A stretch of DNA of 64,000 nucleotides from Burkholderiales bacterium (lineage in GTDB: Bacteria; Pseudomonadota; Gammaproteobacteria; Burkholderiales; SG8-39). Positions 1,610 through 39,583 of the stretch are shown here, piece by piece. The stretch spans positions 20,025 through 84,024 of the forward strand of contig DASVDO010000017.1 of NCBI GenBank assembly GCA_036381055.1. The letters run 5' to 3'. Both the position numbers and the translations under genes were made by a program. Below the pieces are notes generated by a model. That model had not been told where the DNA came from, did no database searches, and was given only the letters and a program-made list of their open reading frames with translations. Numbering within the stretch: the stretch's first letter is position 1; each line of letters opens with the position of its first letter.

Positions 1610-2787
1610 TCCCGGTCGTGCTGTGGGGAGGGATCCCCCTCGTGCGCGCGCTCGGCATGGCGCGCATCCCGGTGCTGGTCGCCTCGCTCGAGCGCGACAC
1701 GCCCTCGATGGCGTCGCGCTACTGCCGCGGCACGGTGGAGCTGCCGCCCGCGGCCGGCCGCGAGGCGACCGTCGAGGCGCTGGTGCGCGCCGGCCGCCGG
1801 CTCGCCGAGCAGCACGGCCGGCCGGTGCCGCTCTTCTACGACAACGACGACCGCCTGGCGCTGGTGCAGGACTTCCGCGACGAGCTGTCGCCGCATTTCG
1901 CGCTGCTGCTGAACGAGCCGCCGCTCGCCGACGCGCTGCTCGACAAGGCGCGCTTCCAGGCGCTCGCCGAGCGGCGGCGCCTGCCGGTGCCGCGGCGCAT
2001 CGACTGGTCGGCGCTCGCCGAGGAGCGCGGGCCGGTGCTGGTCAAGCCGAAATCGCGCACCCGCTGGGACGACTCGCCGGTGCGCGCGCAGCTCTTCGGC
2101 GGCCACGGCAAGGCGCGCGTCTTCCCGAGCGGCCGCGAGGCGCGCCTCGATCCGCTGGTGCAGAGCCTCGCGCTGCAGCTCCAGTTCCAGGAATACGTGC
2201 CCGGCGGCGACGACGCGATCTGGTCCTACCACGGTTTCGCGGCGCCGGGCGGCGAGGTGCTCGAAGGCTTCGTCGGGCGCAAGATCCGCACTTATCCGCC
2301 GCTCACCGGGGACAGCTCCTATCTGCGCCTGGCGCGCGATCCGCAGCTCGTGACGCTCGGCCGGGACATCGCCGCGCGCCTGGGCCTCGCCGGCATCTTC
2401 AAGATGGACTTCAAGCGCCATCCGCAGAGCGGGCGCTACTACCTGCTCGAGATCAACACGCGCTTCAACCTCTGGCATTACCTCGGCGCGAAGAACGGCG
2501 TGAACCTGCCGCGCGTGGCGTACGAGTTCCTGCTCTACGGGCGGCGCCCGCAGCCCGCCTGCGGCTCGACGCGCTACCGCTGGCTCGCCTGGCGCTACGA
2601 CCGGCGCGCCTTCCTCGAGCTGCGCGCGAGCCGCGAGCTCGGCGCGGCGCGCTGGCTGTGGTCGCTCGTGCAGGCGCCCAAGGTCTACGAGTACTTCGCC
2701 TGGGACGACCCGATGCCGCTCGTGCGGTTGCTGCAGGGGCGGGTCAACCGGAAATGGCAGCGCCTATGGCACTCTATGGCGTCCTAG
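1606..2787 (+). CDS. ATP-grasp domain ligase (D-aspartate-ligase / carboxylate-amine ligase-like)
   Basis: ATG at 1606 in ATGA overlap; PVLVKP, QFQEYVPG, FKMDFK...YYLLEINTR ATP-grasp motifs. Confidence 0.8.
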   Translation: MIPVVLWGGIPLVRALGMARIPVLVASLERDTPSMASRYCRGTVELPPAAGREATVEALVRAGRRLAEQHGRPVPLFYDNDDRLALVQDFRDELSPHFALLLNEPPLADALLDKARFQALAERRRLPVPRRIDWSALAEERGPVLVKPKSRTRWDDSPVRAQLFGGHGKARVFPSGREARLDPLVQSLALQLQFQEYVPGGDDAIWSYHGFAAPGGEVLEGFVGRKIRTYPPLTGDSSYLRLARDPQLVTLGRDIAARLGLAGIFKMDFKRHPQSGRYYLLEINTRFNLWHYLGAKNGVNLPRVAYEFLLYGRRPQPACGSTRYRWLAWRYDRRAFLELRASRELGAARWLWSLVQAPKVYEYFAWDDPMPLVRLLQGRVNRKWQRLWHSMAS

Positions 2788-3527
2788 GCGACATCCACGG
2801 CAACCTCGAGGCGCTGCGCGCGGTGCTGGCGGCGCTCGACGCGCGCGGCGTGCGCGAGCTGCTGTGCGTCGGCGACGTGGTGGGCTACAACGCCGACCCG
2901 GACGAATGCGCCGCGCTGCTGCGCGCGCGCGGCGCGCGCACCATCGCCGGCAACCACGACCTGATCGCCACGCGGCGCCTGGGCTTCGAGCGCTGCGCGA
3001 ACAACGCGCGCTACGCGCTCGAGCGTACCCGGCGCGCCATCTCGCCGCAGACCGCCGCGTGGCTGAGCGCGCTTCCCGACATCCTGGTGATCGACGAGAC
3101 GATCGTCCTGGTGCACGGGGGCGTGCAGGACGTGCAGCTCTACATGCGCACGCCGCAGACCATCGAGCGCAACGCCGAGCTGCTGCGGCTGGAGCACCCG
3201 GCGGCGCGCCTGTGCTTCTTCGGTCACAGCCACGTGCAGAAAGTCTACGAGGTCGGCGAGCGCGCCACCGAGCGCGAGCTCTCCGCCGCCCTGGACCGCG
3301 ACAAGCTCTACTTCGTCAATCCGGGCTCGGTAGACGCCCAGCGCAAGCACGATCACAAGCTCGCCGAATGCGCGGTGCTCGACACCGACGCGTGGGCGCT
3401 CGAGTTCCTGCGCTTGCCCTACGAAGCCGCCGCGACCGAGGCGAAGGCGGCGGTAGGCGGCTACCGCATACCGCCGCTCTTCGACCGGGTCTACACCTGG
3501 CGACGCCGGCTGATGCCCAGCTTCTAG
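2766..3527 (+). CDS. Metallophosphoesterase (calcineurin-like, YfcE-type)
   Basis: GDIHGN, GDVVG, GNHD, VHG, GHSH, NPGS motifs; overlaps end of ATP-grasp gene. Confidence 0.9.
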   Translation: MALYGVLGDIHGNLEALRAVLAALDARGVRELLCVGDVVGYNADPDECAALLRARGARTIAGNHDLIATRRLGFERCANNARYALERTRRAISPQTAAWLSALPDILVIDETIVLVHGGVQDVQLYMRTPQTIERNAELLRLEHPAARLCFFGHSHVQKVYEVGERATERELSAALDRDKLYFVNPGSVDAQRKHDHKLAECAVLDTDAWALEFLRLPYEAAATEAKAAVGGYRIPPLFDRVYTWRRRLMPSF

Positions 3528-13378: not shown

Positions 13379-15031
<1,653 letters not shown>

Positions 15032-15034
<3 letters not shown>

Positions 15035-15055
15035 TTCGGGGACGGAGCCCGAACT
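15032..15055 (+). repeat. REP-like hairpin repeat, left end of module 1
   Basis: TAATTCGGGGACGGAGCCCGAACT; internal hairpin TTCGGG/CCCGAA; exact reverse complement of 15457-15480; begins with ettA stop TAA. Confidence 0.9.
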
Positions 15056-15078
15056 CCGAACGCTGAGTCAGTCCTTCT

Positions 15079-15396
15079 GTGCGCATCTGGTATCCACTAG
15101 CTTTCGTTGCCGGCGGCACAATCGGGGCTGCGGCGCTGTCTTTTTTGGCGCAGGAACAATTCGAAGTACTCGTCTTCGTCTCGTTCTTTGCCGCAATCCT
15201 GCTTGGATGGGTGACCTTGTTTGAAAACCGGGCAGTGCGGTATGCAGGACTTTTCAGCAGGTGGGGGCTCTTTCGGCCGGTCTGGCGGCAATGGCTATCG
15301 CCTGCTCGTCCATCATGGTCCATCGTCGCGCTTTTGTTTGTTGTCGGTCTCGTCGGGGGAGGGTGCGTTCGTATCCTTCTGCTATCTGAGATCTAA
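15079..15396 (+). CDS. Orphan hydrophobic protein, gene-cassette-like cargo (may be 5'-truncated)
   Basis: 105-aa ORF with about three hydrophobic segments; ~57% GC by hand count over 15061-15420; stop TAA lies inside ATCTAAC. Confidence 0.55.
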   Translation: MRIWYPLAFVAGGTIGAAALSFLAQEQFEVLVFVSFFAAILLGWVTLFENRAVRYAGLFSRWGLFRPVWRQWLSPARPSWSIVALLFVVGLVGGGCVRILLLSEI

Positions 15397-15456
15397 CAGG
15401 GCGTTGGTACGGACACGCGGCGAGCCGACAAGTCGATTCAGGCGACGTACCGCGGA
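15391..15456 (+). other. Truncated integron attC-like site
   Basis: RYYYAAC inverse core ATCTAAC, 5-nt spacer, GTTGGTACGGAC left arm, inner stem CGCGG/CCGCG; no GTTRRRY core because the REP begins at 15457. Confidence 0.5.
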
Positions 15457-15480
15457 AGTTCGGGCTCCGTCCCCGAATTA
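15457..15480 (-). repeat. REP-like hairpin repeat, right end of module 1
   Basis: AGTTCGGGCTCCGTCCCCGAATTA, perfect 24-bp inverse of 15032-15055; contains the cls stop TAA. Confidence 0.9.
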
Positions 15481-16887
15481 GAGGTAGGGGGCGAAGAGGC
15501 GCGCGACGCCGTCGCGCAGGCGCACGGGAAGGCTGCGCTGGGTGTCGTCGGCGAGGGTGTAGCGGCGGGCGCCGGCGATGCGCGCCTGCACCAGGCCCTC
15601 GAGATGCGCGCCGAGCTCGACGCTGTAGCACTCGACGTCGAGCTCGAAGTTGAGCCGCAGGCTGCGCGCGTCCCAGTTCGCCGAGCCGAGCAGCGTCCAG
15701 GCGCCGTCGACCACCATCAGCTTGGAATGGTCGAACGGGCCCGGCCGCAGCCAGACGCGGCAGCCGCGCTCGAGCACCTGCCAGATCTGGCCGAACGCCG
15801 CCCAGTGCACGTGCGGCAGGTCGCTCTTCTCGGGCAGCACGATGTCGACCTCGACGCCGCGCAGCGCCGCCGCGTCGAGCGCGGTGATCAGCGACTGGTC
15901 GGGCAGGAAGTAGGGCGTCATGATCTTCACGGAGCGCTGCGCGGCGCTCAGGCCGCCGATGATCACCCAGCGCAGGCGCTCGAAGCTCTCGTCGGGGCCC
16001 GCCTCGATGCCGCGCGCCAGGATCTCGCCCGCCGGCGCGAGCCGCGGGAACCACTTCTCGCCGCGCAGCGCCACCCCGGTGGTGAAGTGCCAGTCGTCGG
16101 CGAACACTTCCATGAGCTGCGCGAGCACCGGGCCGCGCAGGCGGAAATGCAGGTCGCGGTAGGCTTCCTCCGGGGCCTCGGGCCGCCAGTAGCGGCAGTC
16201 GACGTTGATGCCGCCGGTGAACCCTTCGACGCCGTCGACCACCAGAATCTTGCGATGGTTGCGCAAATTGAGCGCGTGCAGCCGCGCCGGCAGGAGCGGC
16301 GGATTGAACACCGCCACGTCGACCCCGGCGCGGCGCAGCGGCTTCACCGCGCTCGAGCGGGAAAAGCGCGCGTCGACATCGTCGATCAGCACGTGCACCT
16401 CGGCGCCGCGCCGCGCCGCCGCGGCGAGCGCCTCGACGAACTGCGCGCCGACGCCGTCGCCGTCGAAGATGTACGACGACATGGCGATCGAGCGCTGCGC
16501 GCGCCCGATCGCCTCGAGCATCGCCGGGAAGGCGTGCGCGCCGTCGATCAACGCCTCGACCTGGTTGCCGGGCGTGAGCGGGCGCCCCACCACCTGGCCC
16601 ACCAGGCGCGCGAGCGGCGTGAAGTGCCTGCCCGGCTCGCTCGACGGGAACTGCGCCTCGGTGCGATGGCGCACCATGCGGCGGCGCAGCCGCGTGGCGC
16701 GGCGCTCCACGCGGTTGACGCCGATGGTGAGATAGAGCAGCGCGCCGATCGCCGGCAGCAGCCAGACGACCGCGAGCCACAGGGTGGCCGAGCGGCTTTC
16801 GCGCTTGTAGAGCACGGCGTGCGCCGAAGCGACCACCGCGGCGACGAGCACGGCCGCCGCGAAGGCCAGGTCGACGACATCGCGCAT
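15478..16887 (-). CDS. cls: Cardiolipin synthase (phospholipase D family)
   Basis: N-terminal PLDc_N TM hairpin (WLAVVWLLPAIG); two HKD motifs NHRKILVVD and DHSKLMVVD. Confidence 0.9.
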   Translation of the reverse strand: MRDVVDLAFAAAVLVAAVVASAHAVLYKRESRSATLWLAVVWLLPAIGALLYLTIGVNRVERRATRLRRRMVRHRTEAQFPSSEPGRHFTPLARLVGQVVGRPLTPGNQVEALIDGAHAFPAMLEAIGRAQRSIAMSSYIFDGDGVGAQFVEALAAAARRGAEVHVLIDDVDARFSRSSAVKPLRRAGVDVAVFNPPLLPARLHALNLRNHRKILVVDGVEGFTGGINVDCRYWRPEAPEEAYRDLHFRLRGPVLAQLMEVFADDWHFTTGVALRGEKWFPRLAPAGEILARGIEAGPDESFERLRWVIIGGLSAAQRSVKIMTPYFLPDQSLITALDAAALRGVEVDIVLPEKSDLPHVHWAAFGQIWQVLERGCRVWLRPGPFDHSKLMVVDGAWTLLGSANWDARSLRLNFELDVECYSVELGAHLEGLVQARIAGARRYTLADDTQRSLPVRLRDGVARLFAPYL

Positions 16888-37745: not shown

Positions 37746-38702
37746 ATGAAGCGCGCGCCGGCGCGGCGCCGGCCGCGCAAGGCGAAAGCGCACTCGCGCG
37801 GCCGCGCCGCCGCCGAGTGCCGCGTCGACACGCTGTCGCCCGAAGCCGATCAGGCGAGGATCCGCGTCGAGAACGAGGGCGGCTACGTGCTCGGCTGCTA
37901 CGCCGATCCGCTCGGCGGGCAGCCGGTGCTGGTGGCGGTGCTGCCGATCGACGCGGTGGAGCCGACGCCTTTCCAGCGCGACCTGTCGCAGGCGCACCAC
38001 CGCAAGCTCGCCGACGTGCTCGACCGCACCGGCATCTTCCTCGATCCGATCATCGCGGTCAGCGCGCCGGAGAAGGGCTTCTGGACGCCGAACGGGCGCC
38101 ACCGCCTGGAGGCGATGCGCCGGCTCGGCGCGAGGGCGATCACCGCGCTGGTGGTGCCCAAGCGCGAGATCGCGTGGCAGATCCTCGCCCTCAACACCGA
38201 GAAGGCGCACAACCTGCGCGAGCGCGCGCTCGAGGTGATTCGCATCTACCGCGGGCTGATCGACGAAGACGGGCGGCGCGCCGAGTCGTCGTTCGCGTTC
38301 TACCTGGAGGAGGCCTCGCTCGTGACGATCGGCGTGTGCTACGAGCGCAACCCGAAGTTCGCCGGCGCGGCCTACCACCCGATCGTGCGCCGCCTGCTCG
38401 CCTTCAGCGACGAGCCCGTGGCGAAGGCGATCAAGGCGCACGAGCGCTACGCCGCTCTGCTGCTCGAGCTCGACGAGCGCGTCAACGAGGTGATCAAGAA
38501 GCTGAAGGCGCGCGGCTTCACCAGCCCGTACCTGCGCGCCTTCGTCGTCGCGCGCATCAACCCGCTGCGCTGGATCCAGGGCGAGCCGCCGCCGCTCGAG
38601 GGCGTGCTCGAGACCATGCGCGAGCGCGCCGCGCGCTTCAACACCGACAAGGTGCGCCAGGAGGATCTCGCCGCAGCCGGCGGCCCGGCCGACGAGGACT
38701 GA
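37746..38702 (+). CDS. ParB N-terminal (ParB/Srx) domain protein
   Basis: PTPFQRDLS, FLDPII, TPNGRHRL, ALNTEKAHNLRER. Confidence 0.8.
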   Translation: MKRAPARRRPRKAKAHSRGRAAAECRVDTLSPEADQARIRVENEGGYVLGCYADPLGGQPVLVAVLPIDAVEPTPFQRDLSQAHHRKLADVLDRTGIFLDPIIAVSAPEKGFWTPNGRHRLEAMRRLGARAITALVVPKREIAWQILALNTEKAHNLRERALEVIRIYRGLIDEDGRRAESSFAFYLEEASLVTIGVCYERNPKFAGAAYHPIVRRLLAFSDEPVAKAIKAHERYAALLLELDERVNEVIKKLKARGFTSPYLRAFVVARINPLRWIQGEPPPLEGVLETMRERAARFNTDKVRQEDLAAAGGPADED

Positions 38703-38724
38703 TTCGGGGTCAGGGTCGTAATTC
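38700..38724 (+). repeat. REP-like repeat, left end of RAYT module
   Basis: TGATTCGGGGTCAGGGTCGTAATTC; perfect inverse of 39559-39583; begins with the ParB-gene stop TGA. Confidence 0.9.
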
Positions 38725-38759
38725 GTCAACCGGCCGGGCGCCTCGCGCGTTGTGCAGTC

Positions 38760-39316
38760 ATGGCGAGGCATCCGCGAGTCACTCTACCCGGCGTAGCGCT
38801 GCACGTCCGGCAGCGAGGCGTCGACGGGACGGCGTGCTTTCGCGAGGAGGCCGACAGGCTCGTTTATCTGTCTGCCCTGCGCGAGCTCCTCGGGAGGTCG
38901 CAGTGCGCCTTGCACGCGTACTGCCTGATGACTAACCACGGCACGGTCGCACGGGGACGTTGTGGGACGGCCGGTTTCGCTCGTGCCTGGTCGAATCGCG
39001 CGAATACGTGCTCGCGTGCCACCGCTACACAGAGCGCGATCCGGTCCGTGCCGGCATGGTTGCCTGTCCTTCGGCGTACCGCTGGTCGAGCTTCAAGGCG
39101 AACAGCGGTGAAGCCGAGGCTGCATTCGTTTCCGCGCTGCGTGAAGCGACCGACGGCGGTCTGCCGATGGTCGGACAGGCGCTGCGTTCCCGGCTGGAAG
39201 CCATGGGATGGCGCGTGGAGAAGGGCAAGCCGGGAAGGCGATCGGCGCCGACGCCCGATACGGCGCCGCTCAACGCCGAGCCGCAGTTCTCAGCGCGGCG
39301 AGAATTACGACCCTGA
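38760..39316 (+). pseudogene. REP-associated tyrosine transposase (RAYT, HUH/Y1) pseudogene
   Basis: Frame 1 MARHPRVTLPG..HVRQRG...HAYCLMTNH; frameshift near 38940 into HGRTGTLWDGRFRSCLV...RYTERDPVRAGMV....YRWSS; the second His of HUH and the following helix are deleted. Confidence 0.85.
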
Positions 39317-39325
39317 CCCCGATTC
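39302..39325 (-). repeat. REP-like repeat, internal copy
   Basis: GAATTACGACCCTGACCCCGATTC; 21-bp perfect inverse of 38704-38724; direct repeat of 39559-39582 with one mismatch. Confidence 0.9.
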
Positions 39326-39562
39326 CGCCTCGCAGGCGGCGGCTTCGCTGCGACAGCGCTGCTGGCAGGCCTGGTTCTCCGGGGCCTCGGTGGTGGTCTT
39401 GCGGCAATTGGCGATGCAGGCGTTGAGCGCGGCGCGGCAGCTCGGCGGCGCTTCGCTCTCGGCGCCGAGGTACTGCTGGTAGACGTAGTAGCCGATCACG
39501 GCGAGGGCGATCAGCACGATCAGCGTGCCGACCGCTCCGCCGCGCTGGCTGCGAGGAAGAAT
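39305..39562 (-). CDS. Small pilin-like / Cys-rich membrane-anchored protein; start uncertain
   Basis: Frame reads ILPRSQRG-GAVGTLIVLIALAVIGYYVY...C...C...C...C...C...C...ESGSGS*; stop supplied by the internal REP; ATT 39562 or GTG 39517. Confidence 0.6.
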   Translation of the reverse strand: MLPRSQRGGAVGTLIVLIALAVIGYYVYQQYLGAESEAPPSCRAALNACIANCRKTTTEAPENQACQQRCRSEAAACEAESGSGS

Positions 39563-39583
39563 TACGACCCTGACCCCGAATCA
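39559..39583 (-). repeat. REP-like repeat, right end of RAYT module
   Basis: GAATTACGACCCTGACCCCGAATCA, 25/25 inverse of 38700-38724; contains the GST stop TGA. Confidence 0.9.

Follow-up and report, generated by a model that had tools for sequence, protein, structure and literature searches.

How does a small gene of foreign composition come to lie between two perfect inverted copies of a REP? The question is raised by a locus in the genome of an uncultured soil member of the Burkholderiales (G000, the source assembly; a MAG of 3.1 Mb in 103 contigs), within the 64-kb stretch of DNA, here called the window, that was analysed. An earlier note on this DNA had taken arms and gene together for a cargo unit mobilised by a RAYT. 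The evidence set out below points instead to a history in which the REPs would be the landing site of the gene and not its vehicle.

The REP arms between ettA and cls

A repeat search of the window places the inverted-repeat arms at 15032-15055 and 15457-15480; they are 24 nt long, 100% complementary and 401 nt apart, just as the earlier description of a perfect pair had it. The 24-mer is found at 2 places in the 64 kb, even with 3 mismatches allowed, with 0 expected from 100 shuffles, and its exact sequence has one further copy genome-wide, on contig C78. Taken singly, each arm folds into the hairpin that had been noticed in it, in which TTCGGG and CCCGAA enclose a 7-nt loop (-5.5 kcal/mol, z -2.5). 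The 401 bp between the arms have 57.9% GC, close to the 57% or so once counted by hand, the genome mean being 71.0% (sd 3.6%, 400-bp windows); only about 0.25% of the genome's 400-bp windows are as low, and the insert is indeed compositionally foreign. The Pfam domains on either side agree with the convergent flanking genes that had been named, ettA and cls (Table 1), and the TAA stop codons of ettA (15032-15034) and cls are the outermost 3 nt of their respective arms.

Table 1. Features of the locus and of the decayed RAYT region, in window coordinates
Feature	Position	Strand	Basis and remarks
ettA-like ABC-F gene	13379..15034	+	ORF; Pfam ABC_tran x2 and ABC_tran_Xtn; orthologs in relatives 84-90% identical
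Left arm, REP family A copy AATTCGGGGACGGAGCCCGAACTC	15032..15056	+	head on ettA stop; hairpin; about 45 genomic copies
Putative remnant of the original REP doublet	15057..15067	.	8-nt loop CGAACGCT (15057-15064) and GAG (15065-15067)
Solitary integron gene cassette, 391 bp	15068..15458	+	11-nt leader, ORF, attC-like tail; homology to L055, L057 and L200
105-aa small membrane protein gene	15079..15396	+	GTG start; three hydrophobic segments; pN/pS 0.19
attC-like site	15391..15464	+	R''/L''/L'/hybrid R' by sequence; alignable with attC of the L055 copy
Right arm, inverted REP family A copy	15457..15480	-	head on cls stop (TTA, 15478-15480)
cls, cardiolipin synthase, convergent with ettA	15478..16887	-	ORF; Pfam PLDc_N, PLDc_2 x2
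Decayed RAYT gene, family B REPs around it	38700..39583	+	B REPs at 38700-38725 (+), 39303-39324 (-) and 39559-39580 (-)

Both arms are consensus copies of a repeat family, here called A (AATTCGGGGACGGAGCCCGAACT), which has 45 core matches in G000 and shows the features of a REP, namely a short palindromic unit, many dispersed extragenic copies and inverted doublets. The earlier note had aligned the arms with the repeats around a RAYT gene 23 kb away. The head is common to both, but the latter are members of another family, B (AATTCGGGGTCAGGGTCGTAATT; about 65 matches genome-wide), whose unit is not self-palindromic, unlike the arms of family A. The AATTCGGGG head is all that the two families have in common, 16 of 24 positions being alike by our count. 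The RAYT gene itself is decayed: an intact RAYT of a relative, used as tblastn query, matches it in two frames. Adjoining it, between two B REPs of the same orientation, lies an ORF for a 70-aa Cys-rich protein (39305-39517, minus strand).

The members of both families are often found at the ends of genes. Indeed, the stop codon of a called gene lies within -1 to +1 nt of the ATTCGGGG head in 17 of 37 cases for A and 23 of 65 for B, counts that rest on a crude GC3-based gene call, and TAA, TGA or TAG is seen by eye at many further heads beyond the called genes. Genome-wide the junctions take the form T[AG]A|TTCGGGG or TGA|ATTCGGGG, with examples in the window at 15032, 15480, 38700 and 39583. 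Head-out A-A pairs number at least 8 in G000, where independent insertion would give about 0.2 by our own rough estimate. Their core-to-core spacers range from 14 to 411 nt, all differ in length and are mutually unrelated in sequence, so there is no sign that doublets are copied as units. Mixed B+/A- pairs are also present.

The enclosed gene is an integron gene cassette

The 105-aa protein encoded between the arms matched no Pfam or NCBIfam family. Its three hydrophobic segments agree with the earlier description as a membrane protein; the word orphan, however, has to be dropped, as homologs exist with 83% and 58% identity at identical length and with 70% over a partial sequence. A pN/pS of 0.19 against the closest of them (L055) indicates that the ORF is a real gene. 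A metagenome scan for further homologs yielded only one more locus. All homologs sit in integron cassette arrays, without REPs. In L055/L056 the homolog belongs to a one-directional row of small genes separated by five attC-like gaps, each with an R''-type site (RYYYAAC-like, such as GCATAAC or GCCTAAC) followed 70-95 nt on by R', which reads GTTAGGC in three gaps, GTTATGC in one and a degenerate GTACATG in one; one attC site of the L055 array folds at z -4.3. In L057 the homolog occupies the first cassette position and adjoins a divergent integron-integrase N-terminus (NF011946, E 5.5e-19; TIGR02249, 7.8e-17; PF13495), while in L200 it lies after another attC, in a further array.

At the nucleotide level, the homology between the window cassette and the array copies amounts to 79% over 349 bp and continues past the stop codon into the attC. 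Its start is equally well defined, being G|TTAGGCCTC in L055 and L057, G|TTAGGCCCC in L200 and GAG|TCAGTCCTT in the window, so that the cassette boundary is G|TTAGGCC in the arrays versus GAG|TCAGTCC in the window, with 2 of 7 positions different. From this boundary to the start codon there are 11-13 nt in all four contexts, and the sequences upstream of it are unrelated. The left breakpoint of the cassette is thus canonical, and a breakpoint shared by four left contexts at the integrase crossover point would be hard to get by illegitimate recombination.

The right end of the cassette carries the parts of an attC site, with R'' ATCTAAC at 15391-15397 (the stop codon lies inside it), L'' TGGTACG at 15405-15411 and L' CGTACCG at 15446-15452, the two 7-nt L elements pairing by 6 Watson-Crick and 1 wobble pairs. 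The fourth part is a hybrid R', G|TTCGGG (15458-15464, within ...GGAAG|TTCGGG), whose TTCGGG is the start of the right REP arm. The tail folds no better than its shuffles (z +0.6), which marks the site as degenerate, and the R' consists of GTT only, followed by REP sequence; such a reduction would be as expected for a hybrid of attC and genome.

Integrons are present in the lineage. In particular, an IntI above the curated TIGR02249 cut-off was found in 19 of 41 genomes of the same genus and in 0 of 14 control genomes. G000 itself holds an eroded intI (C43:142-836) with the N-terminus missing, a frameshift near position 384 and a truncated C-terminus. When G000 was scanned for R''/R' pairs with exact complementarity and a distance of 35-150 nt, none was found, and the assembly is therefore taken to contain no cassette array. 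In the relative G021, the array beside intI has the boundary G|TTAGGCCTC seen in L055 and L057 and a GC content of 58.4%, versus 67-68% for intI and its flank. Low GC was for this reason rejected as proof of a distant donor, cassette arrays of the same high-GC genus being also at about 58%.

How cassette and arms may have come together

The course of events that we favour, and consider probable, is that an integron integrase put the cassette at a G|TT site of a pre-existing REP doublet, in an attG-type event. An ordinary family A doublet would first have come to lie between the abutting stops of ettA and cls. A circular cassette, made up of the gene for the 105-aa membrane protein and its attC, would then have been inserted into the doublet by the integrase, with the crossover at G|TT where the right arm has its inner edge (GAG|TTCGGG), a non-classical site of the attG or secondary type. 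The insertion would have separated the arms by 401 bp, and the hybrid attC that resulted, being non-functional under this proposal, would leave the cassette fixed.

This course of events can be run backwards. In-silico removal of 15068-15458 yields TAATTCGGGGACGGAGCCCGAACTC-CGAACGCT-GAGTTCGGGCTCCGTCCCCGAATTA, which pairs perfectly over a 25-bp stem around a loop of 8 nt (-32.5 kcal/mol, z -10.4), the stem being 1 bp longer than the present inverted repeat; the reconstructed empty site between ettA and cls, 58 bp long, reads TAATTCGGGGACGGAGCCCGAACTCCGAACGCTGAGTTCGGGCTCCGTCCCCGAATTA. The GAG to the left of the cassette would accordingly be the inner end of the original right arm, parted from the remainder by the cassette. 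Recombination at GAG|TTCGGGCTCC predicts a left junction ...GAG|TT(AGGCC) and a right junction attC...G|TTCGGGCTCC, and both junctions are as predicted for this target, save two substitutions. From the sequence we infer the order of events, with the REP doublet first, the exact right crossover and IntI as the agent, the order being drawn from parsimony and the reconstructed palindrome.

Integron integrases can insert cassettes outside integrons at attG sites, which have a GWT motif and are cleaved after the G (Loot et al., preprint 10.1101/2022.09.11.507474). This type of insertion is cited as established in PMC12614218 and PMC12901181, the former citing Loot et al. as Nat Microbiol 2024. The reconstructed target GAG|TTCGGG fits GWT at -1 to +2, with cleavage after G. 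The CRGM at +6 to +9 that is the hotspot motif of IntI1 in E. coli (preprint 10.1101/2022.09.11.507474) is absent from it, the positions reading GCTC, and this motif may be enzyme-specific. Cassettes inserted at attG can also be domesticated by loss of attC (same preprint). Further caveats go with the proposal. In comparison with the L055 copy, the attC-like tail may have lost bases at its 3' end, and the right junction may accordingly have arisen by truncation and not by a clean crossover. The G000 assembly contains neither a functional IntI nor a cassette array, and an allele of the ettA-cls locus with the REP doublet alone was found neither among the relatives nor among the metagenome contigs described below.

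The ettA-cls junction, compared across about 25 relatives of which the nearest are 75-84% identical in Cls, is either empty or differently filled. In eight relatives the two stops are 2-31 bp apart with nothing between them, while in G034, G015, L126, L131 and L120 the junction holds unrelated genes without REPs. On the ettA stop, REPs are of type A in G006 and G061, B in L123, B-like in G024, of another type in G025 and of yet another in L128; they are single copies of non-A types in L123 and L128, and the junction of G024 consists of a B-like doublet only. Over the various relatives, at least five REP types have come to lie on the ettA stop. This repeated occupation suggests stop-adjacent targeting or strong selection for the position. 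In G025 (L044, about 1910-2515) REPs of the type CGGGGTCAGAGCCCGATTT bracket a Phd/YefM antitoxin and a partial PIN-domain toxin; this insert was considered as a cassette and is not an obvious one, the toxin stop being 13 nt from the arm and no attC being found.

The relatives G061 and G006 bear most closely on the family A arms. At the locus L111 of G061 (G061:C152) an intact 242-aa RAYT (2472-3322; PF01797, E 8e-16; NF047646, E 8e-17) follows the ettA TAA and two A REPs and is in turn followed by an inverted A REP, which is the same as the right arm of the window in 25 of 25 nt. The arms are thus REPs of a RAYT-associated family, as had been supposed, and the enzyme of G061 is likely the cognate one of family A. 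The search for an intact RAYT was therefore successful in this relative; in G000 none is cognate to the arms. Indeed, the best match to the G061 enzyme among the RAYTs of G000 reaches 46% over the full length, no A- or B-type REPs were found within 900 bp of the three intact RAYTs of this genome, whose translated flanks suggest other repeats there, and its family B RAYT is a pseudogene. In G006 A REPs stand at the ettA stop with a spacer of about 95 nt and without a RAYT, and the downstream flank is homologous (85% over 76 nt). Given these two genomes, the clade has A-type arms at the ettA stop either recurrently or by inheritance, whatever lies between them.

They also open a variant of the cassette insertion explanation, compatible with it, in which the doublet was the leftover bracket of a family A RAYT that had its home at the ettA stop in this clade and was deleted, as in G006, before or at the arrival of the cassette. 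The gene order of G061, the RAYT-less A REPs of G006 and the lack of a G061-type RAYT elsewhere in G000 would fit such a history, which we regard as possible though not the likelier one. Against it, the right arm in G061 and G006 is followed by a CelD-like gene and not by cls, whereas that of G000 is flush with the cls stop, a position that suits an independent insertion of the doublet between abutting stops; moreover, other REP types have reached the ettA stop independently, and no trace of a RAYT is left between the window arms.

Other doublets of G000 show what may lie between two arms. A consensus search for inverted pairs, as had been suggested, did find long A-A pairs around single small genes: C57:17804-18074 and C78:18187-18540 are head-out pairs, each closed tightly round one small gene between convergent genes, for a 46-aa lipoprotein on C57 and a 95-aa DUF1232 protein on C78. 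Both genes have native GC3, however, and the spacers are unrelated. At the C57 junction, G063 shares both gene and left arm with G000 but has another palindrome on the right, and three relatives have a homologous small lipoprotein gene in the opposite orientation without REPs. The DUF1232 gene was considered as a traveller with its REPs and rejected, since in relatives 28 homologs were found without REPs of this kind close by, and the content of the junction varies. These two genes are no cassettes, so that bracketing does not always come about through cassette insertion.

The order of events might also be the reverse, the cassette having entered a bare ettA-cls junction before single A REPs hit each stop codon independently. 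Such a sequence draws on the genome-wide targeting of stop codons by REP heads, on the several REP types seen at the ettA stop and on the existence of mixed B+/A- pairs; the C57 junction, with its lipoprotein gene free of REPs in three relatives and its different right palindrome in G063, further shows that arms can be gained singly around an existing gene. We nevertheless deem it unlikely, as it takes three events instead of two, demands that the right REP landed exactly at the G|TT end of the cassette, leaves unexplained the GAG on the left that completes the palindrome, and has to face homotypic A-A pairs that are far commoner than independent hits predict.

Insertion into an existing doublet, our preferred explanation, could be given a more general form, in which integron cassettes and other incoming DNA land preferentially in REP doublets. 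The long hairpin could mimic a folded attC, or the arms could offer a good double-stranded attG site. If this were true, two hairpin-based systems, RAYT/REP and integron, would be coupled, and doublets lying where convergent genes end would give the clade neutral docking sites for the gain of genes. One case does not establish REP doublets as favoured integrase targets, and the generalization is doubtful for now.

The idea of the earlier note, a non-autonomous REPIN-like element that is moved as single-stranded DNA by a RAYT and delivers small genes, has become very improbable: A-type arms do bracket an intact RAYT at the ettA stop in G061, so that an arm-recognising enzyme exists in the clade, another REP type brackets the toxin-antitoxin pair of G025, and the three long A-A pairs of G000 each enclose exactly one small gene, but the unit of arms and cargo is single-copy in G000 and absent from 60 relatives by DNA search, every homolog of the cargo is a REP-less integron cassette, the left end of the cargo is the integron crossover point, the A-A spacers are mutually unrelated, the 28 DUF1232 homologs lack such REPs within 120-140 nt, the RAYTs of G000 are at most 46% identical to the G061 enzyme over the full length or, for family B, a pseudogene, and eight metagenomes hold the filled allele only, with no excision joint at the locus. 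Indeed, a DNA search with the 401-bp spacer in G000 and the 60 relatives matched only the locus itself, and metagenome contigs from eight runs match the window allele with 0-2 differences and are all filled. No excision or REP-only joint at the locus was found in these eight runs, which otherwise contain empty junctions belonging to other species; the short joints seen at the arms are supported by 20-22 nt only and come from other REP doublets. Together with C57 and C78, the single-copy state and the metagenome results indicate that REP arms sit on the stop codons of convergent genes regardless of the DNA enclosed, and nothing was found to suggest that they mobilise genes.

For comparison, IS200/IS605-type elements with passenger genes move by single-strand peel-and-paste between end hairpins, through an HUH Y1 enzyme and with arbitrary DNA in between. 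This is how a cargo-carrying REPIN would work; a copy number above one, an occupied/empty polymorphism and a cognate enzyme were not found here.

Relation to known systems and further features of the REPs

Solitary attC sites without an integrase are a term of IntegronFinder. The locus resembles isolated cassettes at attG or secondary sites in that it consists of one promoterless ORF followed by an attC-type tail and lies a long way from any intI, with its left breakpoint at G|TT, a putative GWT target and an attC degenerate after the presumed fixation. It differs from them in the target, which would be one arm of a REP doublet, itself placed immediately between the stops of two convergent genes. 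Further differences are the host, an uncultured soil Burkholderiales with an eroded intI only, and the missing CRGM motif of IntI1 hotspots in E. coli.

As for the repeats, they are like REPIN/RAYT systems and REPtrons (Bertels & Rainey, PMC3116915; PMC3733652) in being short dispersed palindromes that form head-out doublets and lie extragenically at the 3' ends of genes, and the RAYT bracketed by family A repeats in G061 is a further likeness to REPtrons. They are unlike REPIN systems in that the doublet spacers are all different and no cognate RAYT is left in G000. GTAG REPs often provide or adjoin stop codons with their termini (Di Nocera et al., PMC3733652); unlike in those REPs, the head here is AATTCGGGG. 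TIRs with the motif GGGGWSAS flank the RAYT-like TIRYT genes (PMC3733652), and family B carries GGGGTCAG, which matches this motif.

The locus offers a natural, sequence-resolved example, from an uncultured soil bacterium, of a cassette that has become fixed outside integrons, with both junctions interpretable and an empty site that can be rebuilt, and it removes the tempting and unsupported idea that RAYT/REP systems ferry genes. A status of REP doublets as favoured targets, if true, would link two mobile-DNA systems. For work on REPs, what matters is the stop-codon habit of the heads in this clade, as well as the use of REPs as targets by an IS4-like element. REPs as landing sites for mobile DNA are known from REP-targeting insertion sequences such as IS1397 and ISPpu9/10. 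The present case, like that of the IS4-like element in G000, is similar in that REPs would be the landing sites; unlike in those cases, the incoming DNA is an integron cassette.

The IS4-like element (DUF4372 and DDE_Tnp_1, ends CAGTAGTGTCCGGTTAAA) is multi-copy and lies outside the window in G000. It interrupts four REP copies, of both A and B, at one common core position, and appears to be a REP-targeting IS; its sites are C29:32467, C49:20370 and 21678, C54:28606 and C102:6155, and the assembly breaks there. The two REP families also combine into nested composite palindromes of the order B+ A+ A- B-, in which the B REP surrounds an A core hairpin whose loop is T-rich; they recur at C26:5319-5401, C26:23193-23293, C65:25995-26089 and C67:22436-22537.
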